Positions 14,904-58,588 of a DNA stretch of 64,000 bases are shown piece after piece. The notes beneath the pieces are model-generated. The model had not been told where the DNA came from. It made no database searches and saw only the letters and a list, made by a program, of their open reading frames with translations. This DNA is from Candidatus Thalassarchaeaceae archaeon (GTDB lineage: Archaea > Thermoplasmatota > Poseidoniia > MGIII > CG-Epi1): the NCBI GenBank assembly GCA_963577905.1, contig CAUYZR010000001.1, positions 66 to 64,065 on the forward strand, written 5' to 3'. Position 1 is the stretch's first letter, and every line of letters begins with the position of its first letter. A program made the translations under genes and the position numbers.

Positions 14904-15716
14904 GTGGAGATAACCGACAACCATTTTCATTTGGATCCATCTGGTAGAAAGGAATTGGCAGTTAAGGATTTCATTAAGGCTGGAGGAACTCGTTTAGTGT
15001 TGGTCCATAAACCATATGGTTCCTGGAAAAAGATAGATAGTTTTCAAAGCCAAGTTAAAACGACTCTAAAATTGGCAGAGAAGGCCAGAGAAACAGGTGC
15101 CAAGGTAGCAGTGGTTGCAGCACCTCACCCGATCGAATTGCTCAAACTTCTTGAATTCAATTCATCTTCACAAGCCTCGGAGATTTATTTCGAGGCCGTG
15201 GATTATTGTACATCTCTTGTTGATGAGAAAAAAACGGTTGGATTAGGTGAGTTAGGTCGCCCCCACTTCGAAGTCGAACCTACAGTTTGGGATTTGGCAA
15301 ATGAGGTTCTGACTGAGTCTCTATCAAGGGCCAAGGAGGTCGATGCTGCGGTAGTTCTTCACACCGAATCCGCTACCCCTGAAGTTATGGCCGACTTATC
15401 TCGGATTGCTTCCAATGCTAAATTTCCTAAGTCCCGTCTAGTCAAACACTATGGTGGGCCGAGTGCGCTTGAAGACCCACATGGAATCGTGGTTTCTCTT
15501 ATCTCCTCTTCAACCAATATTGAAATTGCGGCCAAATCCGAATTTATGCTGGAAACTGATTATCTGGATGATCCACAGAGACCAGGTGCTGTAATGGGGC
15601 CCAAGACCGTACCTCGTAAAACACACAAGGCTCTCGAGAATAACATTCTATCCAAGGATCAGGTTTACAACATACATACCCGACTACCAGATTCAGTCTA
15701 CCGTGAATTTCTTTAG
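14904..15716 (+). CDS. TatD-family metal-dependent hydrolase/nuclease
   Basis: TatD motifs in order: DNHFHLD, VGLGELGRPHF, VVLHTESA, VKHYGGPS, LETDYLDDP. Confidence 0.6.
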   Translation: MEITDNHFHLDPSGRKELAVKDFIKAGGTRLVLVHKPYGSWKKIDSFQSQVKTTLKLAEKARETGAKVAVVAAPHPIELLKLLEFNSSSQASEIYFEAVDYCTSLVDEKKTVGLGELGRPHFEVEPTVWDLANEVLTESLSRAKEVDAAVVLHTESATPEVMADLSRIASNAKFPKSRLVKHYGGPSALEDPHGIVVSLISSSTNIEIAAKSEFMLETDYLDDPQRPGAVMGPKTVPRKTHKALENNILSKDQVYNIHTRLPDSVYREFL

Positions 15717-18700
15717 ATTTCCACTTTTTCGTCGGACTTAAGTTCCCATTCAAGATTCATTCTCCATTGCCTGCACCATGCCTCTATGACGTGCCTTTCC
15801 TGGTTCCCACCCTTAAATTCAGTAATCACAACATCTTTTCCTCTCTTTGACATCTTGAAGGCACCAGTCATTCGAGTTGAACTGAAAATCACGTTACAGG
15901 CTCCCAATCCAAATTTTTGTTTTGCCTCCTGACTCAGATAATGCGATAGCCGGTCAGCTTGTGTAAGAACAAAACTGCCTTGGAAAAGGTGCCCTTTGAC
16001 TCTTTCCAGATCCTCACTTATGATCCAGTACAAGGTCTCACTTCCTTCCTTCAAAAATCCTTTCACCAGAATTCCTTCTTCTTCCAGTCCTGAAAGTATT
16101 TTTCTTAGTTCAGCCATTGGAATCTCGCCCTTCAGCAGCATTCCAAGGTCCTCCGCAGAGATAATTCCAAAGGATAATATCAGTCTCTTGACAACCTTGA
16201 GTTTGGCCTCATCAGCCTCGTAAATTCGATTGACTGGTAAAGTGCGATAATTTCCTCTTGTAGTTCGTACCAGATTAAGGGACTGGTACAATCGGCTCAG
16301 AGATCGTTTGAACGAGTCCGGATCCATACCACTTCTTCTATAGAGTTCCTCACGTGGCAAGCCTTTGGAATCTATTGCCAGAGCTAAAAGCCTTCTATCC
16401 TCGGGTTCTGAAACTATGTTTCTGGCATCACGGTAGATTATAGCATCTCTTACGGTACAGTAGGTAGAGTAACCAGGAATCATCACACCTTGTACTATTT
16501 CCATTTCGTTACCGTAATCCCGAGGATGGAAGAAACGTCCTTGAATTCTCAAGGAAAGTTCATATTCTGAACGTATACCCCCCATCTTATTGAATGCTTC
16601 CATTGCATTTCTGAATCTCCTTTCAGGGTGTATCCTCTGTTTCCAAAGCAAGTATCCGTATATCTCTCGTTTCTGGTAGGACTGATTAATAACTGGGCCT
16701 TTGACCAACCATTCCCTTATTCTCTGATATCCCTTGCTTTCAAATTTCTTTATTATGGTCGCGTCGAGTTCTTCTATTCGTGTACCGGCAAAGGCTTTGA
16801 CTCTAATAATATTGCTGTGAAAGTTCTCTTGATATGTTGCAAATTCATCCAAAGCGTCTAGAAACTCCTCAATTTCCAAAACCTCATTCAACACTACCTC
16901 TCTGATATCTAGTAACCCTGACATGGCCCAGGCTTCCATATATCCTGCGACCATTCCCCCAGATACGACCGGATGTGTCCAGGCTTCACCATATTGGGCG
17001 TACATTTCTCTTCGGACATGAGTGAGGAGTGGATCTCTCCAGGAAATAACCCTCGTCACCTTTTTTTCCTCAGTCTTTTTTATATTTTCAACTTCCTCAG
17101 TTAGGCAATAGGTGAATAAACGCGTAGCTCCTACGACAACTAGTCTAGAAACTATATTCTCTTCTTGTAGCTGATTCAAAATACTCCTTGTGACATTGAG
17201 TGGCATTCCGCATTCCCTTCTTAACTCGGCAAAAGTAAGAGGGCCAATTCCCCGTAATTGGTCGATGACCAGTTTCTTTTCAGGTTCTTCAGGAGATTCG
17301 TATTCTGTTAGTAATCGGTATCGATTGTGTGTTGTCCAGGGATTACGATTTCGGTTGTAACGGTGAATCATCAGTTTTTCTTCTAAGATCCTTAATGCCC
17401 CATGTACCATTTCGGGTTTCAGTTCCAGTTCCTTAGTTATTTCGCTTTTGGTAACTGGTGGGCTTCTTTTGAGCATATCCACAATCAGGCTTTGTATTTT
17501 TCCCTCAGGTTCCTTTCTGAACAAGGCCTGGTACATCCCAACTTTATTGGCAGGCACGTACCTTAATTTTCCTCCTGAAAACCTCCCCTGTAATATCGCA
17601 TCTGAATCTCTCCACTCCCACCACTCCTCAAGATCAGGATTGTCTAATCTATGAAATGCGGTTCTTGGAGAGGCGACGTCACTATGCTGATCAAAAAGCG
17701 TTTGTAAGCTTGAAAACTTCTTGAATAGTTTATAGTCAATAAACTCTCTTAGAATCCTGTCAGGAACGACATCTATGTCTCCATGCGATTGTGCTTCTAG
17801 ATAGATTACATCTTCAGCCATCAAATATTGGGGTGTACTTTGGCCCAGGACAAAATTCCCACCTTGAATAGTACCCTGTTCTTCTAAATCATAAAGCGAT
17901 TGGCTGATGACTTCCTCTGGTAATCTGAGTTCAAGAGCGATCTCTTCTACAGCTCTCGGTCCAACAAAACCGATATGTTTTGTAATAAGGTAATCCAGTG
18001 CTTTTTCATATGATGCATTCTTCTCAATTTTCCGTTTGATGAATCCATCTACCATTCTGCAAACAAGATAATTTCTTTCTAATTCATCACTAATTTTTTT
18101 TGATTTGATAGCTTTCAGCCCCTTCAATTTATTGTAGACCTTTTCCGCTTCTTTCGATAATTTTTCGTCAGAACCATAGGCGGTCCTGTAGTAGGGAATC
18201 AATTCGGGAGTTACATAGAGAGGTTCTTTTTCTCCAGTCCAGACAGATTCAACAATTTTTTCATCAATCATCTCGTGGCATAATTCTTGCATTTCGGTCG
18301 CGATTATGTCAGACATTCGGTAGATTGATTTCCCTTTGTCATTCAATAGATAGATTCCACCGATCTGGCGAATAGCCTGAATCGCACCTTCTTTCGTACC
18401 GACAATCGGTTTCTTTTCATTGAAGTGACTGTCTATCAATTCTTTTTCAAATCTTGGTTTGTCTCCGTCTCCCTGTTCTAACACCCTCCCTAGGACCTGG
18501 GCATGCAACTCTCTCAGGAGTGCAGAACGGTCTTCCATCAGGACTATGTCGCTAAGACCAGAAAGTATCAAGGAATGGGAAAAGGGAGAAGGCACGGGTG
18601 CATAATTCCGATATTCAATACTTCTTTTTCCACTTTCAATCTCATCCAGTATGAGCTGAGCATTGCTAATGTCAAAAGCATCATATAGAATCTCACGATA

Positions 18701-21049
18701 AGCTTCCTCGAGCATTGGGAATGAATCAACTTGATTGATTGCTTCTAGTACCTGAGAGGTCCTTAGTTGCTGTCTGGGCATCGATATTTCACGCCCTTTG
18801 TAGTTGCGTAGCACCATGAATGAGCGGTTGGCACAGTGGCGAAAGCGCTGAGCAAATACTTCGGTGTTTTTGATTGCCTTTCTGAGCAGAGGTTCAAGGT
18901 CCTTGGGCATCAGCCTGTCCGCCAAACCTTCGATTGCTAATCTGCTAGGAAAGGTCAGCAGGAATGCATCATCGCTCAACGAGATTCTTATGCTACTTCC
19001 TATTTCTTTTCCAAGTTGATAGGCAAAGGCTCTGGAAAGGGCATCATTGACCCTCCTTCCGAACGGGAAATGAAAAATCGCTCCGTTGCGTCCCCTATTG
19101 TCAATATATCCCTCGACCATCAATCTCTTATCAGAGGGTACAAATCCACAAATCTTCTTTTGTTCATCAAGGTGGGAGATTATTGTTTTAGCAGCTCCCT
19201 GATCCAGTCTAAAATCCTCTTCCAACCACTTGATTATTTCTTGTTCAGGCTTCTCAAGCTTCTCCTCCATTTCTGCCCTGAATCTTCCTACAGCCTCAGA
19301 CAGGTCAAAAGAGCGAGGTAACATTTCTCCAGACCATGATGGAACAGTAGGTTTCCTACCTAGACCATCCTTTACTATAACGGTAGATCTCTTTGTCTCT
19401 ATGAATTGATATGTTCTTCCACCTAATACAAATATGTCATTCCTCGAAAGATTCTCAACGAACTTTTCCGATAAATTACCTAATTGTATGCCTCTCCCCT
19501 CAAGTACGACAGCATAATTGATTTCTTGGGGGATTGTACCAATATTCATGTTGTAGATTTGTCGCACCCCTCTTTTGATACCAATCTCTTTTGATTTCTT
19601 ATCATACCATATTTTAGGATAGACTCCGTGATTCTCTAGTGCATCCCCTCCCAGAAAATCAAGAACCTCAAGGAACTCATGCTTGGATAGGTTGCGGTAT
19701 GGATATGCCGATCTCACAAGCTCATACATTTCGTCACTATCCCATTTGCGGTCTAGGGACATTCCAATGATAGATTGGGCCAGCACGTCGGTGGCATTTT
19801 CAGGAATAGAAACTCGATCTATTTGCCCTTCGTATGCAGATCTGACTAGGACTGCACATTCGATTAGGTCATCAGAATCAAATACAACCAATCTTCCTTT
19901 GGAAATTTCACTTAGGGCATGTCCGGCCCTCCCAATTCGTTGGAGTCCTTTAGCGATTGATTTAGGTGATCCTATTTGGACAACAAGATCAACGTACCCG
20001 ATGTCAATTCCTAACTCCAGGCTTGTCGATGAAATCACGACATCCATTTCACCGGCTTTGAGTTTCTCTTCCACATCCAGTCTCATTTCTTTGGACAAAG
20101 AACCATGGTGTGCTGCCAATTTCTCTATACCTCTCTCTTTCAATTGCATGGAAATTGATTCAGTTCCAGCTCTGGTGTTGGTGAAGATCAGGGTAGTCCT
20201 ATGGTCATTGACCAGATCAACCAGCAGGTCGTACATTTTTGAATTAATCACTTCTGTAGAGTGAAGGGTTAGATTGTCGACAGGACAGATAACCCTTAGA
20301 TCCAGATGTTTTCTTTCTTTAACATCCACGATGTTCACAAGCCTAGGTTTTCCGTTTTTGTACCCGCCCAGAAAACCAGCTATATCCTCGATTGGGGCCT
20401 GTGTCGCAGATAAGCCGATTCTTACAGGATCTCCATCAATAATCTGTGCCAGCCTCTCTACCGAAAGGGAAAGGTGAGTTCCTCTCTTGTTATTGGCTAG
20501 ATCATGTATCTCATCCAGTATGATGTATCTTGTTTTTCTGAAGTGGGCCCTGAATTTTTTTGATGATAAAAGGAGGCCTAGGCTTTCAGGGGTGGTGATG
20601 AGGATGTGAGGTGGTTTTCTTACCATTCTTGCCCTCTCCTTGAGCGAGGTATCACCAGATCTAACAGCTACCTTAATTTCGGGAATATCCACTTTTCCCT
20701 TAGCTGCCAGTTCAATCATCTCATCCAAAGGTTGTTTGAGATTTCTATCAATATCATTCGCCAATGCTTTCAGAGGAGAGATGTAGATGGCGTGCACTCC
20801 TGTTTCTAGGTCACCATCCTTGTGTATTCTAAAAAAGTCATTTAATATGCTGAGAAAAGCGGTAAGGGTCTTTCCTGAGCCGGTGGGACTTGAGACCAGC
20901 ACGTTTTCTTTTTTAGAGATTAATGGGACAGCCATTGCCTGCGGTGGTGTCAGGTCTTCAAATTTATCATTGAACCATTTCCGAACAAGTGGTTCGAATC
21001 CACCCAGTACTTCTTCTTTACTACTTTTATCAGTAATGTAATTTACCAT
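15713..21049 (-). CDS. lhr: Lhr-type large SF2 DEAD/DEAH helicase with a long (about 900 aa) C-terminal extension rich in winged-helix-like segments
   Basis: Walker A SSPTGSGKTLTAF, DEIH box (ILDEIHDLANNKRG) and helicase C motifs in the first about 850 aa, matching the Lhr core order. The track ORF extends to 21160, so the start was trimmed to MVNYITDK to match the spacing upstream of GSGKT in Lhr and to avoid the tRNA/promoter region. Confidence 0.75.
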   Translation of the reverse strand: MVNYITDKSSKEEVLGGFEPLVRKWFNDKFEDLTPPQAMAVPLISKKENVLVSSPTGSGKTLTAFLSILNDFFRIHKDGDLETGVHAIYISPLKALANDIDRNLKQPLDEMIELAAKGKVDIPEIKVAVRSGDTSLKERARMVRKPPHILITTPESLGLLLSSKKFRAHFRKTRYIILDEIHDLANNKRGTHLSLSVERLAQIIDGDPVRIGLSATQAPIEDIAGFLGGYKNGKPRLVNIVDVKERKHLDLRVICPVDNLTLHSTEVINSKMYDLLVDLVNDHRTTLIFTNTRAGTESISMQLKERGIEKLAAHHGSLSKEMRLDVEEKLKAGEMDVVISSTSLELGIDIGYVDLVVQIGSPKSIAKGLQRIGRAGHALSEISKGRLVVFDSDDLIECAVLVRSAYEGQIDRVSIPENATDVLAQSIIGMSLDRKWDSDEMYELVRSAYPYRNLSKHEFLEVLDFLGGDALENHGVYPKIWYDKKSKEIGIKRGVRQIYNMNIGTIPQEINYAVVLEGRGIQLGNLSEKFVENLSRNDIFVLGGRTYQFIETKRSTVIVKDGLGRKPTVPSWSGEMLPRSFDLSEAVGRFRAEMEEKLEKPEQEIIKWLEEDFRLDQGAAKTIISHLDEQKKICGFVPSDKRLMVEGYIDNRGRNGAIFHFPFGRRVNDALSRAFAYQLGKEIGSSIRISLSDDAFLLTFPSRLAIEGLADRLMPKDLEPLLRKAIKNTEVFAQRFRHCANRSFMVLRNYKGREISMPRQQLRTSQVLEAINQVDSFPMLEEAYREILYDAFDISNAQLILDEIESGKRSIEYRNYAPVPSPFSHSLILSGLSDIVLMEDRSALLRELHAQVLGRVLEQGDGDKPRFEKELIDSHFNEKKPIVGTKEGAIQAIRQIGGIYLLNDKGKSIYRMSDIIATEMQELCHEMIDEKIVESVWTGEKEPLYVTPELIPYYRTAYGSDEKLSKEAEKVYNKLKGLKAIKSKKISDELERNYLVCRMVDGFIKRKIEKNASYEKALDYLITKHIGFVGPRAVEEIALELRLPEEVISQSLYDLEEQGTIQGGNFVLGQSTPQYLMAEDVIYLEAQSHGDIDVVPDRILREFIDYKLFKKFSSLQTLFDQHSDVASPRTAFHRLDNPDLEEWWEWRDSDAILQGRFSGGKLRYVPANKVGMYQALFRKEPEGKIQSLIVDMLKRSPPVTKSEITKELELKPEMVHGALRILEEKLMIHRYNRNRNPWTTHNRYRLLTEYESPEEPEKKLVIDQLRGIGPLTFAELRRECGMPLNVTRSILNQLQEENIVSRLVVVGATRLFTYCLTEEVENIKKTEEKKVTRVISWRDPLLTHVRREMYAQYGEAWTHPVVSGGMVAGYMEAWAMSGLLDIREVVLNEVLEIEEFLDALDEFATYQENFHSNIIRVKAFAGTRIEELDATIIKKFESKGYQRIREWLVKGPVINQSYQKREIYGYLLWKQRIHPERRFRNAMEAFNKMGGIRSEYELSLRIQGRFFHPRDYGNEMEIVQGVMIPGYSTYCTVRDAIIYRDARNIVSEPEDRRLLALAIDSKGLPREELYRRSGMDPDSFKRSLSRLYQSLNLVRTTRGNYRTLPVNRIYEADEAKLKVVKRLILSFGIISAEDLGMLLKGEIPMAELRKILSGLEEEGILVKGFLKEGSETLYWIISEDLERVKGHLFQGSFVLTQADRLSHYLSQEAKQKFGLGACNVIFSSTRMTGAFKMSKRGKDVVITEFKGGNQERHVIEAWCRQWRMNLEWELKSDEKVEI

Positions 21050-21166
21050 GTTTTTCGAAACGTTATCTGCCGCAGAATAGCGAAGGGTGTAATAGATTAT
21101 GGGTCTCACCTCAAACCCAATAAAATGTGATAAACTCTTTTTAGGCCCCTTCGGTCGCAAAAAAGA

Positions 21167-21829: not shown

Positions 21830-23896
21830 TTAGGCAAGTCCCTGTTTTTCAGCTTCGATTGCATCTTTTATTCCAGGATCGACAATTCCAGTCCATGGTT
21901 CAGCACCTATTATATTTGAGGAATCTATTCCTTCTACCCAGAGTTCAATACCCTCAAAGCTGCTTCGTGTACCTTCAGGAACTGTGAATTTGTATTTGGT
22001 CGATTCGGTGGTTGGCAGTCCGATGGACCAGACAACCTGATTTCCTTCTCTCTTACCAGGTCTGGGTTCAGCATCCTTGATCTCATGTCCTAGAACTTCA
22101 GCCCTGAGCTTGAAATTAGCTGATCTCAAGCGATAATTTATTATCTTTATTTCAACCTCGATTTGGCCATTGTTGAATTCAATTTCTTCCTCGATCCAGA
22201 CCACGTCCATGATAGCTGCAACAACCTTGTCCAGATTTGGAACAGGCTGCCCAACGATACTTGATGCCTTTTCCGCGATTGCCGGCAATATTTTTTGTAC
22301 CAAGTCAAATTTTTCAGTTACTTTTTCCCTCTTTTTCTGTTTTTTCAGGTGTCTTGACAGTGTCTTTGCATTGTTACGTAGAGCTAATTTAATTTCTTTT
22401 TTGATTTCACTTATATCTGCAACTGCCTCTTTGGCCTCGGAAGTGAATGGGATGTTCGTTGATGCTACGTGTACCAGGATTATGGCAGGTCCATTCGGAG
22501 TGCCTTTGCCAGCTCTTTGTTCCAAACCATACTGTCTCCAATTTATGCCCTGTATAGCCTTGGTGATGGCACAACCACCGGCCTGATAAAGCAATGGAAC
22601 TCGGTTGGCAAATCGGAGGATCTGAACTGGCTGATCCTTAGGAAGATTACCTCCGTAAACCATTCCGACCTCCACTAGGAAGGGAGTTCCCGAAAATACG
22701 GATGGAGTACGGCTAATCGGTAGCGTGTAAAAATCAGGTCGATATTCATCCAGTACCTGCTTCAGTCCTAGTTTGATCAGTTTCGGTCCAATTGGGACTA
22801 GAACTCCACTCGTCGGAGTCCGGATCGAGGTTGTTTTGAAAGCATCTATCATTCCCTTCGCCTCAATTCTAGTGATATCCTGTGGCCTAACAATAGAGGA
22901 TAGTCTTGCTTTTTCCAGTACGCCACTAATGCTCTTTGAACCCATGGATGACAAATCATTGCGCAGAAATCGAGCCATCTGGTGTTCTGAACTGTGATGA
23001 GCCATACGTATCAGCTGGCCCAACTCTACACCATGTGGATGCGGCTTTACACCTTCACTGGGTAGTTTTGGATTTTCCTGACTAACCCTCTCAAAAATGG
23101 TTGTATTTTTTTCTGGATTGGTAAAAATTATCTTGGCATGGGGATTGACAATAGCAGTTGATTTCAGGTATTCCAAGACAGAAGGCCTTGCTTCCCGATA
23201 TCTTCCCTTGATTGCAAATTCAACCCTTGTACCATGATGCTTCTCAGGATAAATTCCATCCTCATCCGGTTCAGCAACCTCATCTTTCCATACAAAGTCC
23301 TCAGTCCTCTCAACATTGCCTCGGTTATTCCGAGTGTCCAGTTTCATAGTTATACGTATAGCTAAATGCTCCTCTGATATTCGGGTGCTGATAGTAGCAG
23401 ATCTCCCAGTCGTCAGTTGACCGTACATTATTGCAGCCGAGATTCCAATGCCTTGCTGTCCCCTAGATTGCTTACCACTTCCAAAGCGTGAACCATACAA
23501 CAATCTTCCAAAAACATTCGGGACATTCTGCTCTATAATTCCAGGGCCATTATCCTCTATTGCAATGCTTAATTCATCCCTTGCCAGGCTTTCAAGTTCA
23601 ATTTTCAGTTCGGGAAGAATGCCAGCCTGTTCACAAGCATCTAGGCTATTGTCGACCCCTTCCTTGACTGCAGTTATCAGGGAATGGGTAGGATTATCAA
23701 AACCCAATATGTGGCGGTTCTGTTCAAAGAACTCAGAGACTGGAATATCACGCTGTTCCTTAGCCAACTGGTGAGCTTTCGTTTTTTTGGCAGTTACCTT
23801 CTTTTTGGCTTCTTTCTTTTCCGATTTAGGGTGCTCTACCTGAGGCTCTTCAGGTTCAATTGTTTCAGTTCCAAATTCAAAGGTCGTTTGACCCAT
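21830..23896 (-). CDS. top6B: DNA topoisomerase VI subunit B (GHKL ATPase)
   Basis: Bergerat-fold motifs AVKEGVDNSLDA, IEDNGPGI and GxxGxG-like GSRFGSGKQSRGQQGIG, plus a transducer region. 688 aa. Confidence 0.85.
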   Translation of the reverse strand: MGQTTFEFGTETIEPEEPQVEHPKSEKKEAKKKVTAKKTKAHQLAKEQRDIPVSEFFEQNRHILGFDNPTHSLITAVKEGVDNSLDACEQAGILPELKIELESLARDELSIAIEDNGPGIIEQNVPNVFGRLLYGSRFGSGKQSRGQQGIGISAAIMYGQLTTGRSATISTRISEEHLAIRITMKLDTRNNRGNVERTEDFVWKDEVAEPDEDGIYPEKHHGTRVEFAIKGRYREARPSVLEYLKSTAIVNPHAKIIFTNPEKNTTIFERVSQENPKLPSEGVKPHPHGVELGQLIRMAHHSSEHQMARFLRNDLSSMGSKSISGVLEKARLSSIVRPQDITRIEAKGMIDAFKTTSIRTPTSGVLVPIGPKLIKLGLKQVLDEYRPDFYTLPISRTPSVFSGTPFLVEVGMVYGGNLPKDQPVQILRFANRVPLLYQAGGCAITKAIQGINWRQYGLEQRAGKGTPNGPAIILVHVASTNIPFTSEAKEAVADISEIKKEIKLALRNNAKTLSRHLKKQKKREKVTEKFDLVQKILPAIAEKASSIVGQPVPNLDKVVAAIMDVVWIEEEIEFNNGQIEVEIKIINYRLRSANFKLRAEVLGHEIKDAEPRPGKREGNQVVWSIGLPTTESTKYKFTVPEGTRSSFEGIELWVEGIDSSNIIGAEPWTGIVDPGIKDAIEAEKQGLA

Positions 23897-40412: not shown

Positions 40413-40439
40413 CGGGGGACATAGTCCCCCGTTATTTTT
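40413..40439 (+). other. Perfect 8-bp stem / 3-nt loop hairpin (cgggggac-ata-gtcccccg) followed by ttattttt, just upstream of topA
   Basis: Direct inspection. Resembles an intrinsic-terminator-like or attenuator-like structure. Confidence 0.5.
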
Positions 40440-42741
40440 GGGCTTTAGAAAAAGATATTTAATCCACCTTTCCGGCAGTCCTTCAATGGATTTAGTGATT
40501 GTTGAATCTGGTGCCAAAGCCAAGACAATCCAAAAATATTTGGGTAAAAATGTACTGGTAAGGGCCTCTGTTGGTCATGTTCAGGACTTACCTACAAAGG
40601 GAAAAGATGGCAGTAAAGCATTGTGGAGTCATACTGATACTAGTCTACCAGATCCTCCTTGGGGTTGGACTGAAAGAGCGGAGAAGACAGTAAAACGTAT
40701 TATTTCAGACAGCCGCCGTAAGAAGGTAGATAGAGTTCTTATCGCTACAGATCCAGATAGAGAAGGAGAATTTATAGCCTGGAGACTTGCTGAGTTACTT
40801 TCGGAATTTGGTGATATTCAAAGAATTACTTTCAATGAAATAACTGAAACAGCGATAAAAGAGGCTTTGCAAGCAGCAGGTACGGTAGACATGAATCTTG
40901 TTGATGCAGCTAAGGTTCGTAGATTTATGGATCGTTTGATTGGTTATCGAACTTCACGCTTTGCTAGGTCTTGGAACTTAAGTTCCATGGGGCGCGTTCA
41001 AACTCCAACGTTAGGTTTTGTAGTTAAGCGTGAAAAAGAAATTCAAAAGTTTATTCCAACTCCTTATTGGGCAGTTCAAGCTATTGCTTCGGGAATAGAT
41101 TTTAGAGTTCGATTTCATGATAAGGATGATTCTTTAGTCTGGAAAGATGAAAAAGGGAAGATTAATGTTCATCGTACAAATGATTCAAATTTGGCCAATA
41201 AAGCCTATGAATATTTGAATCTAGAATCTCAATTAACTGCTAAGACTGTGTCTTTAAATGATTACAAAAGACGTCCTAAACCACCTTTTACCACAGATAC
41301 ATTACTTCAGGCTTCTGGAAGCAAATATAGTTGGCGACCAAGTAATACTATGCGTATCGCTCAAGGACTTTATGAGGCCGGTCACATAACTTATATGCGA
41401 ACGGATTCAACGCGTACTAGTGCATCTTCCCGTGATAAGGCAAAGAACTTTATCACTTCCAAATGGGGTTCCGGATTTGTAGGGAAAGGTTCTGTCAGTG
41501 GAAAGCCAAAATCAGGTGTTCAGGATGCACACGAAGCAATTAGACCAACTAATCCATTGTCTGAATTACCAAATGGTTTAGATGAATCTCAGACACGTTT
41601 ATATCGTTTAATTTGGTCAAGATTCATCGCTAGTCAAATGTGTGATTCCGAGTGGACCAGTATGAAAATACAGGCACAACTTGAAACATTTGATAAATTA
41701 TTGGATGGAGATACTAAGTGGAGAGTAAAACCGGGTTGGGAATCTGCATTTGAAGTAATTGACCGAGCACCTCCTTCTTCACCGCCTTCTCCTGAAATTA
41801 CAGAAGGTAGCAAAATTAAGTTAGACAATAAAGAAGGTAATCCAAAATTAATTGAGGATCAGACAAAACCTCCTGCCCGCTATACACAACATGGTTTGGT
41901 TGCTCTGATGAAATCAGAGAGTATTGGTCGCCCTTCTACATATGCCGCAACTATTAAGAAATTATTAGATCGTAAATATTGTAGCGATACAAAGGGCCGC
42001 CTTAAGCCAACTGTGGAAGGAGTGTTGCTTTGTGATGAAGTAGTTCCGTTTTATGATTCCGAAAAAGAAAAAATAAGTTTATTTTCTTCATCTTTTACTT
42101 CTGAAATGGAATCAGATTTAGACCTGATAGAATCGGGAGTAAAAGATTCAGTCAGGGTCTGGGACGATTTTGTATCTTCATTTAGGGGCTTACATGAAAA
42201 AGCATTGGAAATGAAGAAGGAAAGACCAACACGGAGACAGATTGAATATTATGGGCGCTTGGCATCCTTGATTTCAGATGAGGATCTTAACAAAATTCTG
42301 GATGGCCGGGACCCATTTTCAATGGATGGCGAGAAAATTGGTGAGGTTATAGACGGACTGAAAAAAGCTACTGCGGATGTTGTCTTGCCTGCATCAGCTA
42401 AGCAACTATCATACATTGAAAACTTAGCCAGTACATTGGAACTTAATGAATCAGCGGCTTGCGAGTTGGTTGAATTAGAACGTTTTGATGAGTTGACAGG
42501 TGGCAAGTCGGGAACTGCAAGTTCATTGATAAGCAAGCTACGAGAAAAGACCGATTCCATACCTCGGAAGCCGAGCCCAAAACAGCTAAATTTCATTAAG
42601 AATCTGGTTAAGAAGGCTGAATTGGAAGAGGAAGCAGCCTGTAAATTAGTTGGAGCAGACACCTATTCCGATCTTTTGGGGGGGCGTCAAGGAACTGCTA
42701 GCAAGTTGATAGAAACCTTGCGCAAGCGCTCTGCAAAGTAG
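40438..42741 (+). CDS. topA: Type IA DNA topoisomerase (Topo I/III-like) with two C-terminal repeats
   Basis: Toprim N-terminus (DLVIVESGAKAKTIQKYLG), DxD (ATDPDREGE) and catalytic Tyr region (GHITYMRTDSTR). The true start is probably MDLVIV at about 40486. Confidence 0.85.
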   Translation: MGFRKRYLIHLSGSPSMDLVIVESGAKAKTIQKYLGKNVLVRASVGHVQDLPTKGKDGSKALWSHTDTSLPDPPWGWTERAEKTVKRIISDSRRKKVDRVLIATDPDREGEFIAWRLAELLSEFGDIQRITFNEITETAIKEALQAAGTVDMNLVDAAKVRRFMDRLIGYRTSRFARSWNLSSMGRVQTPTLGFVVKREKEIQKFIPTPYWAVQAIASGIDFRVRFHDKDDSLVWKDEKGKINVHRTNDSNLANKAYEYLNLESQLTAKTVSLNDYKRRPKPPFTTDTLLQASGSKYSWRPSNTMRIAQGLYEAGHITYMRTDSTRTSASSRDKAKNFITSKWGSGFVGKGSVSGKPKSGVQDAHEAIRPTNPLSELPNGLDESQTRLYRLIWSRFIASQMCDSEWTSMKIQAQLETFDKLLDGDTKWRVKPGWESAFEVIDRAPPSSPPSPEITEGSKIKLDNKEGNPKLIEDQTKPPARYTQHGLVALMKSESIGRPSTYAATIKKLLDRKYCSDTKGRLKPTVEGVLLCDEVVPFYDSEKEKISLFSSSFTSEMESDLDLIESGVKDSVRVWDDFVSSFRGLHEKALEMKKERPTRRQIEYYGRLASLISDEDLNKILDGRDPFSMDGEKIGEVIDGLKKATADVVLPASAKQLSYIENLASTLELNESAACELVELERFDELTGGKSGTASSLISKLREKTDSIPRKPSPKQLNFIKNLVKKAELEEEAACKLVGADTYSDLLGGRQGTASKLIETLRKRSAK
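42355..42741 (+). repeat. Two about 55-aa tandem C-terminal repeats in TopA
   Basis: ASAKQLSYIENLASTLELNESAACELVELERFDELTGGKSGTASSLISKLREK versus PSPKQLNFIKNLVKKAELEEEAACKLVGADTYSDLLGGRQGTASKLIETLRKR. Confidence 0.75.
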
Positions 42742-51938: not shown

Positions 51939-54524
51939 TTGACAGAAGAAACTACAGATACAATTCTAAAAATTAGCATAGAGAAGGAGATGCGTAAGTC
52001 CTATTTGGATTATGCGATGTCAGTTATTGTAGGGCGTGCGCTACCTGATGCTAGGGATGGCCTCAAACCAGTGCATCGCAGAGTTCTCTATGCCATGAAA
52101 GAGATGGGTTCAGGGTCTCGTTCAGCCTATAAGAAATCAGCTAGGATTGTTGGAGATACCATGGGAAAATATCACCCCCATGGAGATCAGTCCATTTACG
52201 ATACGATGGTACGGATGGCTCAGGATTTTTCACTACGTTACCCACTGGTAGATGGTCAAGGCAATTTCGGTTCTGTTGATGGTGATAAAGCGGCAGCCAT
52301 GCGTTATACTGAGTCACGTCTGGCTTTGATCGCAGATTCAGTTCTATCGGACATTGATGAAGGTACGGTTAACTTTAGGGAGAATTATGACGGTTCATTA
52401 CAAGAGCCGACCGTTCTTCCAGGTCTGCTTCCAGGTCTTTTGGTCAATGGTTCATCAGGTATAGCAGTAGGTATGGCTACCAATATGGCACCGCACAATC
52501 TGTCTGAAATTATTGCTGCTTTAAATCTGTTAATTGAGAACTCTAGAATTCCACTCGCTGAGATAATGGCCGTCCTTCCAGGTCCCGACTTTCCCACAGG
52601 AGGTACAATAATGGGGCGCAAGGGAATTTTTGATGCGTATACTGTTGGTCAGGGATCGGTTAAGATGAGAGCAAAGATAATTCATGAATCTGATGATAAA
52701 AATGAATATCTAATAGTTACAGAGCTTCCTTTCATGGTTCAGAAGAATCGTCTTTTGGAAGAGATTTCCAAGATGATACGTGACAAGAAAATAGAAGGTA
52801 TCCGGGATATCCGGGACGAGTCTGATCAAAAAGGGATGCGTGTTGTATTCGAGTTGAAGCGAGACTCTTCACCTATGATTGTTGAGAATCAACTGTACAA
52901 ACATTCAGTTCTTGAGACAAGTTTTGCGATAAATAATGTAGCTTTGGTTAAGGGCCAACCTAAACGCATGAATCTGATTGAACTTTTGAAGGTTTATTTG
53001 ACCCATCGTCGGGAAATTGTCACCAGACGTACTAAATATCGATTAAAGAAGGCAGAGGACAGAGCTCACATTGTGGAAGGTTTATTGCTAGCCATATCGA
53101 AAATGGATAAGGTGATAGCATTTATCAGAGGTGCGGCAGGTCGAGACGCAGTTATAGATGGTCTACAGAAGAAGTTCTCACTGAGCAAAATCCAATCCAA
53201 AGCAATTGCAGATATGCGACTTTATCAACTATCACAGCAGGATGCAGATGAAAGAAGGAAAGAATTAGAGGATCTCAAAAATACAATGGCTGAGCTGAAA
53301 TCAATTTTGGATGATCGTGACAAGGTAATGTCTATAATCAAGGAAGAGCTACAGCAGTTGGACGAGAAACATGGTGATGCGCGAAGGTCAGTCATATCTG
53401 ATTTCGATGGAGATTTGAATACAGAGGATCTCATTCCTCGTTCTCAAGTGGTTGTAATGCGTACCTTTGAGGGGTACATTAAACGTGTTGGTCTGGATGA
53501 GTATCAGGCCCAGCATAGGGGAGGCAAGGGTAGAATAGGAATCAAAGCCAAGGAAGGGGATTTCCCCGTCGAATTGTATTCTATGGGTTCACATGACTAT
53601 ATTTTGTTCTTTACCACGGCAGGCAGTATGTATTTCCTGAAGGCTTGGCAAATTCCAGATGTATCTCGTTACTCCAAGGGAACGCCATTGGTCCAGTTAC
53701 TTCAGAAATTGGATGAAGGACGTAAAGAAAAGGACGAGAAAGTACTATGTATGCTACCAGTTGCTAACATTAGTGGCGATGGTCACTATTTCTTGTTTGC
53801 AACTAAGAAGGGAATTATCAAGAAGACACGCCTAGAGGAATATTCGTCCAGAATTAAACGAGCTTGGGCCAGTGATCAGGGCTTCCGAGCTATTACTCTC
53901 AAGGATAAGGATGAATTAAGAGGAGTTGCTATTTCAGAGGGCGATAGTCAGGTTATGCTTGCAAGCAAAGGAGGTATGGCCAATCGTTTTTCGGAAGGTG
54001 AAGTAAGAATAGTGGGCCGTAATGGTCAAGGTGTTATTGGAATGCGTCTGAAGGATAAGGATGAGGTTATTGGCATGGCCTTAGTAGATGATGATGAGAT
54101 TCTGTTAACTATAACAGAGAAAGGATATGGTAAGAGAGCCAATGCAGATAATTACCGATTAACTAGGCGTGGTGCCAAGGGAGTTCTCAATATCAAAGTC
54201 GACGAAAAGAGTGGATATGTTGTCGCCATTATGACGCCTGGTGACGCTAATCAGATTTTGGCAACTACCTCTTCTGGAAAAGTTATTCGCACCCATGTTG
54301 ATACTATAAGACTGATTGCGCGTTTTGGCCGTGGTGTAAAAGTGATGGCAGTTGATGATGATGAGACTGTTGTCGCTGTAGCCCTGCATAATGAAGATGA
54401 TGAGGAGAGGAATGTCGACCCTCATAGCAATGGAGAAGTGTGCTCAGAATGCAAATCTGGAAAACTGGTCCTTGATGACGGAAAATATGTGTGCGGTACA
54501 TGTGGATTGATTAAGGATGCGTGA
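51939..54524 (+). CDS. gyrA: DNA gyrase subunit A with a C-terminal CxxC...CxxC zinc ribbon
   Basis: [37 protein letters not shown], active-site Tyr region ([11 protein letters not shown]), beta-pinwheel C-terminal domain. C-terminal [22 protein letters not shown]. Confidence 0.9.
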
Positions 54525-55446
54525 GAACCCAGTAGACGATATTGCTATTGATTCCAAGACAACGCTTGCCGATTTAAATTCGCAGTTTGCAAAAGCAGGT
54601 GGTTTTGTTGCAGTCAAGGTCGCTACCGCCACATCCATAATTCAGGATATGAATCAAGGAGAATGTACCAAATTTATTTCATTCCCAGCAGACATTATGG
54701 CAACCGGGACCCGAGGCCTGCTTCGACAATTTGTGGAAAGAGGAATGATCGATGTGATTGTCACTACTTGTGGAACTCTAGATCATGACATAGCTAGAGT
54801 ACTGTCCGATTATTATCACGGTGATTTTGTGATGGATGATCAACAATTGAGGAAGGAAGGCGTTAATCGTCTGGGGAATGTTCTGATTCCTGATGAATCG
54901 TATGGAATCCCGATTGAAAACTGGATCCAGCCGATTCTCTCTGAACTTTATAATAAGGACAAGCGCTGGATTCCCTGGAGGATCTGGCATGAGCTTGGAT
55001 TGAGACTAGCAGACGAGGAAAAAGGTTCAGAATCATTGCTGGCAACCTGTGCCAAGAAAGGTATCAAGGTCTTTGTTCCAGGTCCAACAGACGGAGCAGT
55101 CGGTTCACAACTCTGGATGTTCTGGCAAACTCACAAGGATTTTACTTTAGATATTTTAGCCGAAGAGCATGAACTCTCAGATATTGTACACGAAGCTGAT
55201 TCAACAGGTGCAATAATAGTTGGAGGCGGAATCTCCAAACATCATACGATCTGGTGGAATCAATTCCGAAACGGTCTAGATTATGCAGTCCAAGTCACTA
55301 CAGCTCCCGAATGGGATGGTTCTCTCAGTGGTGCCCGTGTGCGTGAAGCAGTTTCCTGGGGCAAGGTACAACCTAAAGCAAGACGCATAACAGTCGAGGG
55401 AGATGCTACGGTGCTGCTACCCTTGATTCTGGGTCCATTATTATGA
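54517..55446 (+). CDS. dys: Deoxyhypusine synthase
   Basis: DHS blocks [31 protein letters not shown] and [10 protein letters not shown]. Overlaps the gyrA end by 8 nt. Confidence 0.85.
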
Positions 55447-56204
55447 GAGCTATAGTCCGTGGGATACCCTCTTCTTATGAGAAAGGGCTGGCAAAATATT
55501 TCGGCACTGGTCCTACAGACATAGAAGAGGCCAGGTCCCAGCACAAATCCTATGTTGCTAAGCTCATGGAGCTTGGAGTTACAGTTAAGGAAATAGAACC
55601 ACATGATTCCTATCCAGATTGCTGTTTTGTAGAGGATCATGCTGTTGTCGCGGGTGATTCGGCCTTGATTACGAATACCGGCCATGATAGCCGACTCGGA
55701 GAGAAGGCAGCAGTCCAAGGCGCCTTGGAAGAGGATTTAAACCTAGTTTTCATGGAGTCTGAGGCTAGAATGGATGGTGGCGACGTCCTTCAGTTTGGTA
55801 ATCAATTTCTGGTTGGTAACAGTACTAGGACCAATGAGGCTGGAATTCAGTGTCTGAAGGATTTTGTTGAAGCCCGCGGTTTTATGATGTATGTAATTCA
55901 GGTCCCTAGTAATTCATTGCATCTGATTTCAATTTGTACTTCTCCTATTCCTGAAGTTCTACTGGCACCTAAAGGCTGGTTCACTCGATCTGATTTTCCA
56001 TCCGATGCTGAAATTCTCTGGATTCCTGATAAGGAAGCCTATGCAGCAAATGTATTGTCATTTGGGAAGGATGTAATGGTTGCAGCTGGTTATCCTCATA
56101 CTTCTCGATTGCTGGAAAATAAAGATTTGACCTTGCATTCCATGGAGATGTCCCAATTCAAGGCTGCAGATGGGTCTCTTACTTGTCTTTCAGTCTTGTA
56201 TTAA
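55443..56204 (+). CDS. DDAH-family amidinohydrolase (guanidino-group-modifying enzyme superfamily)
   Basis: Collinear with DDAH: YPDCCFVEDHAVV, GNSTRTNEAGIQ, KEAYAANVL...AAGYPHT, and C-terminal catalytic Cys DGSLTCLSV. 4-nt overlap with dys. Confidence 0.7.
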   Translation: MRAIVRGIPSSYEKGLAKYFGTGPTDIEEARSQHKSYVAKLMELGVTVKEIEPHDSYPDCCFVEDHAVVAGDSALITNTGHDSRLGEKAAVQGALEEDLNLVFMESEARMDGGDVLQFGNQFLVGNSTRTNEAGIQCLKDFVEARGFMMYVIQVPSNSLHLISICTSPIPEVLLAPKGWFTRSDFPSDAEILWIPDKEAYAANVLSFGKDVMVAAGYPHTSRLLENKDLTLHSMEMSQFKAADGSLTCLSVLY

Positions 56205-56237: not shown

Positions 56238-57578
56238 TTGAGCCTTATGGTAGTGATTGATAGTCCTGCAAAGATAGAGAATGCTTCGGGAAGGTTGGGG
56301 GTTCTGATGCCAGGTCTTGGAGCTGTAAGCACTACTTTCATTGCAGGGACATTAGCCATTCGAAATGGCCTGTCCAGACCGATAGGTTCATTGACTCAAA
56401 TGGGTTCTTTGCGGCTTGGAAAAAGAACCGAAAAGCGCGAAGTCGATATCAAGGATTTTGTTCCTTTAGCCAATCTCGATGATCTGGTTTTTGGAGGTTG
56501 GGATATATTCGAGGATAATTGCTATGAAGCGGCCGTCAAGGCCGGTGTCATCGATGTATCTCTTTTAGATCAAATAAAGCCCGAGTTGTCATCAATAAAA
56601 CCTATGAAGGCGGTTTTCGAGAAGAAATTCGTGAAGAAATTAGATGGCACTTATGTAAAATCAGCCAAAGGCCATCGAAAACGGATAGAAGCTCTCAGGC
56701 AAGATATACGGAATTTTAAGAAAGAAAATAAGGTTGACCGGGTGGTCATGATATGGTGCGGTAGTACGGAAGTCTATCAAGAACCCAAAGATTCAATTTA
56801 CGAGTCGTTTGAGTCATTTGAGAAGGCGTTGGACTCGGATAATCCTTCCATTGCCCCTTCAATTTTGTATGCCTATGCTGCTCTGAAAGAAGGTGTGCCC
56901 TATGCCAATGGAGCTCCTAATCTGTCTGTTGATTTTGATGCAATGTATTCCTTGGCATCCCAGGAGGGGGTACCAATTGCGGGCAAGGATTTCAAAACAG
57001 GTCAGACACTCATGAAGACTATTTTGGCACCAGGTTTCAAGGCTCGTAGGATAGGTATAGATGGTTGGTTCTCGACCAATATTCTGGGAAATAGGGACGG
57101 TGAGGTACTGGACGATCCCGATTCTTTCAAGACCAAGGAAGTATCTAAACTGGGCGTCCTCGAGCAAATACTGGAACCTGAAAAATATCCTGAATTGTAC
57201 GGAGATTTATACCACAAAGTTCGAATAAACTATTATCCCCCTAGAGGAGACAACAAGGAAGGGTGGGACAACATTGACATCAAGGGTTGGTTGGACTATC
57301 CAATGCAGATAAAGGTGAATTTCTTGTGCAGGGACTCAATTCTAGCTGCTCCGTTAGTTCTTGATCTGGCCCTCTTCCTTGATTTATCAAATAGAGCAGG
57401 TATGCACGGTATTCAGGAATGGCTTTCGTTCTATTTCAAGTCACCAATGTGCAATCCGGATTTGTATCCGATACATGATCTGTTCGCACAGAAGGCCAAG
57501 CTGGAGAACACGCTTCGCCATTTAATGGGTGAGACTCTCATTACTCACCTTGGTCTGGATTATTATTACGAGGAATGA
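56238..57578 (+). CDS. myo-Inositol-1-phosphate synthase family protein
   Basis: Archaeal MIPS-like blocks (YANGAPNLSVD, GQTLMKTILAP, LVLDLALFLDL). 446 aa. Confidence 0.6.
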   Translation: MSLMVVIDSPAKIENASGRLGVLMPGLGAVSTTFIAGTLAIRNGLSRPIGSLTQMGSLRLGKRTEKREVDIKDFVPLANLDDLVFGGWDIFEDNCYEAAVKAGVIDVSLLDQIKPELSSIKPMKAVFEKKFVKKLDGTYVKSAKGHRKRIEALRQDIRNFKKENKVDRVVMIWCGSTEVYQEPKDSIYESFESFEKALDSDNPSIAPSILYAYAALKEGVPYANGAPNLSVDFDAMYSLASQEGVPIAGKDFKTGQTLMKTILAPGFKARRIGIDGWFSTNILGNRDGEVLDDPDSFKTKEVSKLGVLEQILEPEKYPELYGDLYHKVRINYYPPRGDNKEGWDNIDIKGWLDYPMQIKVNFLCRDSILAAPLVLDLALFLDLSNRAGMHGIQEWLSFYFKSPMCNPDLYPIHDLFAQKAKLENTLRHLMGETLITHLGLDYYYEE

Positions 57579-58588
57579 TGAAAGCAGTAGTTGTCACAAA
57601 ACATGGGGGCCCCGATAACATGGAGCTCCAGGAGCTTCCAACACCCTCTCCCGGGCCAGGAGAAGTTTGCATCCGAGTTTCCAGAGCTGGAATCAATTTT
57701 GCAGATATTCTTTCCCGCATGGGACTTTATCCTGGTTCTCCCAAACCACCCTTTACACCAGGAATGGAAGTTTCAGGAACGGTACATGAGGTTGGTCCGG
57801 ACGTAGAAGGTTTTGAACTTGGAGACAGGGTTGTCGGTTCTGGTACCAAGGGCGGTTATGCTACCCATACAATCGCCAAAAAAGAGGGTGTCTTCAAGAT
57901 TCCAGACGAGATTACTTTTGATGTGGCTGCCGCTTTTCCAGCAGTTTATCTCACTTCGTATCTGATGATCATCCATCCCGGAGCCTTACAGAAGGGAGAA
58001 TCGATATTGATTCATGGTGCTGCAGGTGGTGTAGGGCTGGCTTCAATAGAACTGGCTAAGATCGCGGGTGCCAAAACGATATTTGGTACATGTTCTCCAA
58101 GTAAGCACGATTTTATTCAGGAAAAAGGTGTCTTACCAGTTGATAGAGACAATTTTCTGGCTGGGATAATGGAATGGACCGATGGCAAGGGAGTGGAATT
58201 GGTCCTGGATCCAATAGGAGGCGAGCATCTAATGCAATCCTATCGCTGTCTGGGTTCTGGTGGCCGAGTATGTTCGTTTGGTATATCAGATATGGCTCCA
58301 GGCAAGAAAAAGAGCCAATGGAAACGCTTCAAGTCCTGGATGACCTTTCCCAAGTTTGATCCATTGAAGATGATGACCAGTAACAGGGGCGTATTTGGAA
58401 TACACTTGGGCCGTTGGAGGAACTGGGAACGACTGGACAAGGCCAGAAAAGATCTGATGAAGTGGATTGATGAGGGCAAGATAAATCCCCATGTGGACAA
58501 GGTTTTCCCTTCAGAGAAAGCGGCAGAGGCCCATCATTACATTCAGGATCGGAAGAATATTGGTAAGGTTCTTCTGAGTTTCGATTAA
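57575..58588 (+). CDS. Zn-independent MDR-family NAD(P)H quinone oxidoreductase
   Basis: MKAVVVTKHGGPDNMEL...GINFAD and LIHGAAGGVGLASIELAK Rossmann motif. 337 aa. Confidence 0.7.
   Translation: MMKAVVVTKHGGPDNMELQELPTPSPGPGEVCIRVSRAGINFADILSRMGLYPGSPKPPFTPGMEVSGTVHEVGPDVEGFELGDRVVGSGTKGGYATHTIAKKEGVFKIPDEITFDVAAAFPAVYLTSYLMIIHPGALQKGESILIHGAAGGVGLASIELAKIAGAKTIFGTCSPSKHDFIQEKGVLPVDRDNFLAGIMEWTDGKGVELVLDPIGGEHLMQSYRCLGSGGRVCSFGISDMAPGKKKSQWKRFKSWMTFPKFDPLKMMTSNRGVFGIHLGRWRNWERLDKARKDLMKWIDEGKINPHVDKVFPSEKAAEAHHYIQDRKNIGKVLLSFD

Follow-up and report, generated by a model that had tools for sequence, protein, structure and literature searches.

What is a guanidino-modifying enzyme doing in the same operon as deoxyhypusine synthase? 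The question is raised by a stretch of 64,000 nucleotides (nt) from a Candidatus Thalassarchaeaceae archaeon of Marine Group III (MGIII; GenBank assembly GCA_963577905.1, contig CAUYZR010000001.1, positions 66 to 64,065), referred to here as the window. In it the deoxyhypusine synthase (DHS) gene dys is followed directly by a gene resembling dimethylarginine dimethylaminohydrolase (DDAH). An earlier note on this DNA had proposed that the DDAH-like enzyme could act on a guanidino-containing intermediate or precursor of aIF5A (deoxy)hypusination. We put the chances at about even that the gene instead encodes a hydrolase converting free L-arginine (or methylarginine) to citrulline, packed into a housekeeping operon and probably taking no part in a (deoxy)hypusine step. 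The features on which the question turns are the following.

54517-55446, + strand: dys (309 aa), canonical archaeal deoxyhypusine synthase
55443-56204, + strand: DDAH-like gene (253 aa), DDAH-fold (pentein) guanidino-group hydrolase with a free L-arginine-type amino acid as predicted substrate
55443-55446, + strand: ATGA junction of 4 nt, where the TGA stop of dys lies over the ATG start of the DDAH-like gene (read from the sequence)

Fold and active site of the DDAH-like protein

The collinearity with DDAH that the earlier note described is borne out. The protein matches human DDAH1 over its full length (1e-28) and carries the blocks FVED (residues 62-65), RTNEAG (129-134, the TN-E-G block of the note), SLHL (with His160) and, near the C-terminus, DGSLTC (with Cys248). 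An AF2 model built from 13 homologues (pLDDT 92.8, pTM 0.89) shows the five-bladed pentein fold of ~250 residues. Among the structural matches returned by Foldseek, human and Pseudomonas DDAH gave TM-scores of 0.89-0.92 at 27-34% identity (6szq, 1h70 and 3bpb, E ~1e-23). The arginine dihydrolase domain of ArgZ/AgrE followed with ~0.87 at 15-16% identity, and lower values were obtained for amidinotransferases (0.75-0.82, 15-16%) and arginine deiminase (0.77-0.79, 11-13%).

The three NCBIfam DDAH equivalogs, NF045660, NF045658 and NF045659, scored 149.6, 120.7 and 49.6 bits against cut-offs of 340, 450 and 300, all below cut-off. For arginine deiminase (ArcA), TIGR01078 reached 19.5 bits against a cut-off of 489 and PF02274 covered residues 107-153 only, and the protein is not a full-length ArcA of ~400 aa. 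The NCBIfam Arg_dihydro model gave 21 bits against 450. Pfam assigned the protein to the ADI and DDAH_eukar families only, with no AguA-type or arginase-fold membership. Judged by these sequence comparisons, the protein is a separate clade inside the DDAH fold, widespread in Marine Group II (MGII) and MGIII. Database names of its homologues vary: at NCBI one is an 'arginine deiminase-related protein' and another a 'hypothetical protein', and JGI uses 'dimethylargininase'. Literature searches on DDAH in Marine Group II/III or on a DDAH-type arginine deiminase gave nothing relevant.

We aligned 86 homologues (MGIII, MGII and Flavobacteriales) and located in them the ligand-binding and catalytic sites of human DDAH1. 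Nine residues of the window protein, D59, E64, D65, R84, D111, R129, H160, D243 and C248, are invariant in 86/86 and correspond, in this order, to D73, E78, D79, R98, D127, R145, H173, D269 and C274 of the human enzyme. They lie in three blocks of the gene.

55611-55637, + strand: YPDCCFVED block, with D59 as alpha-amino binder and E64 and D65 as guanidine clamp (86/86)
55686-55844, + strand: R84 (DSRLGE), D111 (MDGGD, catalytic acid) and R129 (RTNEAG), both Arg taken as alpha-carboxylate binders (86/86)
55914-56186, + strand: His160 (SLHL) and D243/Cys248 (DGSLTC), the catalytic His, the second guanidine clamp and the nucleophilic Cys (86/86)

The human counterpart of R84, R98, presumably has an alpha-carboxylate role. 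Human DDAH1 uses D73 to bind the alpha-amino group and R145 for the alpha-carboxylate; its guanidine clamps are D79 and D269, and its catalytic triad is C274, H173 and D127 (PMC10958460, a crystal-structure review). The active site thus points to a free arginine-type amino acid: with D59, R84 and R129 invariant, agmatine, a guanidino-polyamine or a protein-bound residue would not fit. This tells against the guanidino-containing intermediate that the earlier note had put forward as substrate. The note had also asked which of agmatine, methylarginine or a peptide-bound group the active site could accommodate; by residue mapping, the retained carboxylate-binding pair Arg84/Arg129 does not suit agmatine or a peptide-bound group. 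The MGIIb copies that adjoin SpeD-like and DHS-family genes (see below) carry identical alpha-amino and alpha-carboxylate residues in the same alignment. A role in the hypusine route meets a further difficulty in the chemistry, as a DDAH or deiminase reaction yields a ureido group and not the free amine that deoxyhypusine needs.

As a marker separating arginine from methylarginine we considered the position of human L271, in the pocket for the methyl leaving group. It is Ser in 86/86 homologues, but it is Gly in Pseudomonas DDAH, and the marker was dropped.

The deoxyhypusine synthase

The dys product is, on its sequence, unambiguously a deoxyhypusine synthase. It matches Pfam DS (2.4e-102) and the equivalog-level NCBIfam model NF002294 (416.8 bits against a cut-off of 350), and its structure-database matches include PDB 8put (1.8e-79) and human DHS (~2-3e-53). 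The catalytic Lys283 lies within SWGK, and K283, E277 and W281 align with human K329, E323 and W327. Outside MGIII the nearest relatives are TACK-type DHS proteins (Caldarchaeales, Thermoprotei and archaeon HR04; 42-54% identity) and not the DS proteins of the sister order MGII. This affinity suggests that DHS was replaced or transferred within Poseidoniia. In the two genomic contexts of TACK-type relatives that we examined, dys had no DDAH-like neighbour. We looked in the window for aIF5A by its GKHGxAK motif and did not find it.

Two residues have been described as separating the agmatine-coupling enzymes CdmS/SpeY from human DHS (D243/D316 vs F204/L286; PMC10981699). These two sites are occupied by Ser and Leu in the window dys, by Thr and Leu in the solved archaeal DHS 8put, and by Asn and Tyr in the MGII DS. 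Leu270 of the window dys occupies the position of human DHS Asp316, and the archaeal DHS structures 7cmc and 8put also have Leu there; the site therefore does not single out the MGIII dys as agmatine-dependent. The two sites were accordingly dropped as a marker of agmatine dependence in MGIII dys, being not diagnostic.

Conservation of the gene block in Marine Group III

The pair belongs to a longer run of genes on one strand, whose other members are listed here.

51939-54524, + strand: gyrA (DNA gyrase subunit A, 861 aa), which opens the co-directional run
56238-57578, + strand: myo-inositol-1-phosphate synthase (INO1), downstream neighbour of the DDAH-like gene (Pfam NAD_binding_5, 2.8e-103)
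57575-58588, + strand: zinc-type alcohol dehydrogenase or quinone oxidoreductase-like gene (ADH; Pfam ADH_N and ADH_zinc_N)

Both overlaps reported in the earlier note were confirmed from the sequence. The final 8 nt of gyrA, ATGCGTGA, cover the start of dys, the DDAH-like gene overlaps dys by 4 nt, and the start codons are backed by N-terminal alignment with homologues. A third overlap, of 4 nt, joins INO1 and ADH (57575-57578). The gene list of the window contains at least 12 same-strand junctions overlapping by 1-23 nt, with unrelated genes among them. As overlaps are frequent between unrelated genes, and gyrA/dys and INO1/ADH are as tight, the 4-nt overlap speaks for a shared transcript and not for a shared pathway.

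A genome scan with one genome per GTDB species yielded 322 confirmed DDAH-like relatives. The locus comparisons, made by tblastn with the window proteins and by clustering of neighbour genes, cover the best 80 (loci, these and others, are labelled L001 and so on). Both the DDAH-like protein and the block as a whole have their nearest relatives in Marine Group III (class Poseidoniia), at 93% identity in UBA136 and 61-69% in the CG-Epi metagenome-assembled genomes (MAGs). The earlier note had reasoned that a pairing seen in this genome only would refute its proposal; the adjacency extends well beyond it. The DDAH-like gene follows dys in 29/31 MGIII loci that show the upstream side (L010-L031, L033, L041/42/45 and L001-L003), and a DHS-family gene is again next to a DDAH-like gene in 7/46 MGII GTDB loci and in L092-L094.

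Within MGIII the adjacency of dys and the DDAH-like gene always occurs in the same gyrA-dys-DDAH(-INO1) block. The MGIII-Epi version, S19e-L31e-eIF6-DUF531-gyrA-dys-DDAH-INO1-ADH, is present in every locus showing the upstream side, and the 4-nt ATGA or GTGA overlap between dys and the DDAH-like gene is found in 26/26 MGIII-Epi loci with both genes called, at DDAH-like identities of 61-93%. The high-GC clade of MGIII (L041/42/45; DDAH-like identity 51-52%) keeps gyrA-dys-DDAH with a spacer of ~30 nt. INO1 adjoins the DDAH-like gene in all MGIII loci that show INO1, the inverted lineage described next included, with a gap of 0.4-1.6 kb in L042 and L045.

The bathy-type MGIII (L038, L040 and L102; L102 3-10634) have an inversion of ~9.7 kb (helicase ... 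gyrA-dys) with one breakpoint exactly between dys and the DDAH-like gene. After the inversion dys remains joined to gyrA, now in the opposite orientation (62% identity over 261 aa), and both dys and the DDAH-like gene are intact. A lineage that split the two genes and kept both counts against pathway coupling. Of the coupling claimed in the earlier note, this much is supported: the pair is real and operon-like. Its tight overlap, matched by gyrA/dys and INO1/ADH, is no evidence of coupling between pathways.

Homologues in Marine Group II and marine Flavobacteriales

In MGII, an M28 peptidase with a lipoprotein-type signal stands beside the DDAH-like gene more often than any other neighbour. 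These peptidases (for example L004 6876-8522 and L076 8801-10543) have ~530-640 aa and an N-terminal hydrophobic segment ending in a lipobox-like ...AGCFG/AGCLG. They adjoin the DDAH-like gene in either orientation, in Poseidonia-labelled as well as Thalassarchaeaceae-labelled MAGs.

Directly upstream of the DDAH-like gene, at ~75 nt on the same strand, the 7/46 GTDB MGII loci and L092-L094 carry a SpeD-like gene (120-161 aa; 142 aa in the GTDB loci) and, as its partner, a DHS-family gene (DS, 314-336 aa). The two members of the pair range from a 4-nt overlap to 15 nt apart (L076 6471-7866; L090-L098). The SpeD-like/DS pair itself was present in 9/9 MGII DS contexts examined, with or without an adjacent DDAH-like gene; most MGII loci have the pair in a different place from the DDAH-like gene. 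The MGII DS keeps the catalytic lysine (SWEK). It is 25-26% identical to the window dys and 25-30% identical to all canonical DHS representatives, and among NCBIfam models the bacterial 'homospermidine biosynthesis protein' fits it best. By this measure the DHS-family enzymes of the sister orders MGII and MGIII differ greatly.

Experiments have shown that SpeD homologues of MGII are L-arginine decarboxylases, and their genes were reported to cluster with speB and speY (Li et al. 2023, PMC10407285). The bacterial SpeY joins two agmatines, and its product then needs a SpeB-type ureohydrolase or an AguA-type iminohydrolase; the existence of an agmatine-dependent archaeal DHS was posed as an explicit question in the same work (Li et al. 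2026, PMC13625781). By analogy with these clusters, the MGIIb order SpeD-like, DS, DDAH-like has a guanidino-modifying enzyme at the place expected for SpeB or AguA, and is the strongest support for the proposal of the earlier note.

Homologues in marine Flavobacteriales (L007, L034-L037 and L039) share 46-52% identity and have no DHS neighbour. Identity at this level between archaeal and bacterial homologues indicates an inter-domain transfer, to marine Flavobacteriales. The DDAH-like gene is divergent from argS in 6/6 of these loci, followed by ornithine aminotransferase (OAT; TIGR01885, 681 bits). Ornithine carbamoyltransferase (OTC; 571 bits) and carbamate kinase (TIGR00746, 357 bits) are also present in 6/6, usually with a SpeD-like gene, and none of the six loci contains arcA. 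With OAT, OTC and carbamate kinase in place and arcA absent from these loci, no candidate other than the DDAH-like protein is left for the first, citrulline-making step. The cluster resembles an arginine deiminase-type pathway whose first enzyme has the DDAH fold. Clustering of OTC and carbamate kinase with the DDAH-like gene was seen in the flavobacterial loci and not among the window genes examined or in the MGII and MGIII loci.

Proposed function and alternative readings

The reading to which we give about an even chance is that of a cytoplasmic DDAH-fold enzyme with a complete Cys248-His160-Asp111 triad. It would hold a free L-arginine-type amino acid by D59 at the alpha-amino group and by R84 and R129 at the alpha-carboxylate, clamp the guanidino group between D65 and D243, and hydrolyse it to a ureido group, which would give L-citrulline. 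L-arginine would be the most likely substrate, making the protein a short DDAH-type functional analogue of arginine deiminase, with N-omega-methylarginines as second candidate. The role would be arginine catabolism in a protein-degrading marine heterotroph. The M28 peptidase next to the MGII copies and an OPT oligopeptide transporter in the window fit the use of peptides and amino acids. Co-transcription with gyrA, dys, INO1 and the ADH-like gene is most likely due to a streamlined genome that packs unrelated housekeeping genes into overlapping runs. We infer substrate, product and the lack of pathway coupling, whereas the analysis shows the gene structure, the fold, the catalytic and substrate-binding residues and the conserved synteny. 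A loose link to dys through shared arginine-derived metabolism is possible, and the recurrence of the pairing in MGII hints at it.

Several observations weigh against this assignment. The DDAH-like gene still follows dys, with the exact 4-nt overlap, where its protein has diverged to 61% identity. In part of MGII the gene directly upstream once more belongs to the DHS family, though to a very different type (26% identity); taking ~14 distinct upstream neighbour families in MGII and an assumed ~1,800 genes per genome, we estimate that the DS-upstream arrangement would recur by chance with a probability of 0.4-2%, a rough and a-posteriori figure. All three DDAH equivalog cut-offs are missed by far, and arginine deiminase models are matched marginally. 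The preference for arginine over methylarginine is a guess from gene context in a different phylum. OTC, carbamate kinase and OAT were not found among the window genes examined, and homologues of the SpeD-like, OAT, OTC and carbamate kinase genes of the other loci were not found in the window.

The enzyme might be a true DDAH, which would take free asymmetric dimethylarginine or monomethylarginine from digested eukaryotic (phytoplankton) proteins to citrulline and methylamines, and so salvage nitrogen and carbon that are beyond the reach of arginase or arginine decarboxylase. DDAHs make up its nearest solved structures and sequence models, it retains every DDAH ligand-binding residue, and JGI names the homologues accordingly. 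Citrulline as product fits the extracellular M28 peptidase in MGII and the citrulline-using enzymes in Flavobacteriales. We nevertheless regard this as rather unlikely. The three DDAH models give 150, 121 and 50 bits where their equivalog cut-offs are 340, 450 and 300, and the class-wide spread (322 relatives) and the ATP-yielding OTC/carbamate kinase cluster suggest high-flux arginine over rare methylarginines; the Ser at the L271 position does not discriminate, as Pseudomonas DDAH has Gly there. A distinctly less probable reading is precursor supply, in which conversion of arginine to citrulline (or ornithine) would feed or balance the polyamine pool used by DHS. The gene would then belong to an 'arginine use' module and not to the hypusine pathway, sharing arginine as substrate with a SpeD-type arginine decarboxylase. 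In two unrelated lineages, MGIIb and Flavobacteriales, the DDAH-like gene is accompanied by SpeD-like genes whose ESH self-processing motif is intact; argS, OAT, OTC and carbamate kinase stand in the flavobacterial cluster, the active site fits arginine, and the fold is near that of the ornithine maker ArgZ/AgrE, an arginine dihydrolase (TM ~0.87). This is countered by the 21 bits against 450 obtained with the NCBIfam arginine dihydrolase model and by the window genes examined, among which a SpeD-like gene, ornithine decarboxylase, OTC and spermidine synthase were not found; moreover, arginine breakdown competes with an agmatine route rather than feeding one.

The proposal closest to the earlier note is that the protein is a non-homologous replacement of SpeB or AguA, acting on an agmatine-derived intermediate made by an agmatine-using enzyme of the DHS/SpeY type; candidates are agmatine, bis(guanidino)homospermidine and guanidinobutyl-lysine on aIF5A. 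It draws on the dys-DDAH operon conserved in MGIII and on the SpeD-like, DS, DDAH-like order in part of MGIIb, SpeD homologues of MGII being arginine decarboxylases by experiment and clustered with speY (PMC10407285). A ureohydrolase or iminohydrolase partner is what the bacterial SpeY product needs, an agmatine-dependent archaeal DHS is an explicit question (PMC13625781), and in a Haloferax model agmatine is transferred to aIF5A (PMC5178350). Leu270 of the window dys stands at the human Asp316 site as in the agmatine-coupling CdmS; however, the same Leu in the archaeal DHS 8put and 7cmc makes it non-diagnostic. The invariant Arg pair and Asp, kept also in the MGII copies beside SpeD-like and DS genes, would repel cationic carboxylate-free substrates or be useless for them. 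Deiminase chemistry leaves a carbamoyl group, which would call for an additional amidase, and no adjacent gene encodes one. speB is already part of the published MGII clusters, SpeD-like/DS and the DDAH-like gene are apart in most MGII loci, and dys and the DDAH-like gene were parted by the inversion in one MGIII lineage. We consider this replacement very unlikely. Its broadest form, in which the Poseidoniia DDAH-fold enzyme would be a third non-homologous guanidino-processing partner (beside SpeB and the AguA type) of an agmatine-using DHS and complete a deoxyhypusine or homospermidine pathway, seems to us equally doubtful. Most improbable is an amidinotransferase, in which Cys248 would take over the amidino group of arginine and transfer it to an amine, for example a polyamine. 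Superfamily, catalytic triad and arginine-binding logic are the same, and the polyamine amidinotransferase HsvA is among the fold matches (TM 0.75-0.82), but hydrolytic DDAHs are much closer (TM 0.9, 27-34%) than amidinotransferases (15-16%, ~100 residues longer) and no acceptor-related genes lie nearby.

Should the protein be a free arginine-type hydrolase, it would belong to a widespread clade of short DDAH-type enzymes, probably catalysing the first step of arginine or methylarginine breakdown. That clade spans two of the most abundant planktonic marine archaeal groups as well as marine Flavobacteriales, and would matter for the recycling of protein nitrogen. Were it a SpeB/AguA replacement, the finding would bear on how deoxyhypusine is made in archaea that may lack spermidine, and on the question of an agmatine-dependent archaeal DHS (PMC13625781).

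Other features of the window

GyrA is well supported, with 1059.6 bits against a cut-off of 902 for NCBIfam NF004043, and matches to Pfam DNA_topoisoIV and six DNA_gyraseA_C stretches. Its C-terminus has an extension of ~45 residues with a zinc-ribbon-like CxxC...CxxC at residues 832-858 (54432-54512). The extension has a weak match to Pfam Zn_ribbon_RRN7 (8e-4, below cut-off), and the dys start codon lies just past it. In MGIII relatives GyrA has between 829 and 892 aa. A gyrB neighbour of gyrA was not identified. Topoisomerase VI subunit B (21830-23896, - strand), a type IA topoisomerase (40438-42741, + strand) and gyrA all lie within 33 kb. Crenarchaeota offer a possible parallel to the overlap of gyrA and dys, as their DHS and aIF5A genes are reported to cluster with topoisomerase genes (PMC5178350).

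Elsewhere the window encodes housekeeping functions: an Lhr-type helicase, topoisomerase VI B, topoisomerase I, alanyl-tRNA synthetase, the OPT transporter and geranylgeranyl reductase. The helicase (1815 aa, 15713-21160, - strand) has a C-terminal AlkZ-like DNA glycosylase region and winged-helix domains. A pentapeptide-repeat protein (620 aa, 10735-12597, - strand) has a signal-like N-terminus and matches Pfam Pentapeptide at 2.9e-85, and a large predicted surface protein (12722-14836) adjoins it.

Comparison with known systems

Two known gene clusters link a DHS-family enzyme to a guanidino-group enzyme. The SpeDA-SpeY-SpeB/AguA clusters make homospermidine from agmatine through bis(guanidino)homospermidine (PMC13625781, PMC10407285), and part of MGIIb resembles them in its order of SpeD-like gene, DHS homologue and DDAH-like gene. 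The DDAH-like enzyme, however, is neither arginase-fold nor AguA-type and has a site suited to an alpha-amino acid, no SpeD-like gene was found in the window, and its dys is a canonical archaeal DHS. The aIF5A-agmatinase-DHS clustering of Euryarchaeota, as in Haloferax volcanii (HVO_2297-2300; PMC5178350), likewise ties an archaeal DHS to a guanidino-group enzyme. There the partner is an agmatinase-like protein of the arginase fold that releases urea, and aIF5A is in the cluster, whereas the window has a DDAH-fold partner flanked by gyrA and INO1.

The other comparisons are with enzymes acting on arginine or its derivatives. The N-terminal domain of ArgZ/AgrE (PDB 6JV0 and 6LRF) is likewise DDAH-like, comparable in size and active on free L-arginine, but it is part of long multidomain proteins, shares 15-16% identity and has a model, Arg_dihydro, that the window protein matches with 21 bits against 450. 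DDAH itself (EC 3.5.3.18; human DDAH1, PDB 2JAI; P. aeruginosa, PDB 1H70) agrees in its ~250 aa, pentein fold, triad, and ligand and clamp residues. The window protein differs in having only 27-34% identity to it, in failing three equivalog thresholds, in forming its own clade and in occurring in contexts that point to arginine metabolism. ArcA (EC 3.5.3.6) is a larger protein of ~400 aa with an extra helical domain, and it is remote in score (19.5 bits against 489), structure (TM 0.77-0.79) and identity (11-13%). It nevertheless belongs to the same superfamily and has the same chemistry, from guanidino to ureido plus ammonia, and the flavobacterial homologues of the DDAH-like gene stand beside arcB-like, arcC-like and rocD-like genes, at the place expected for arcA.

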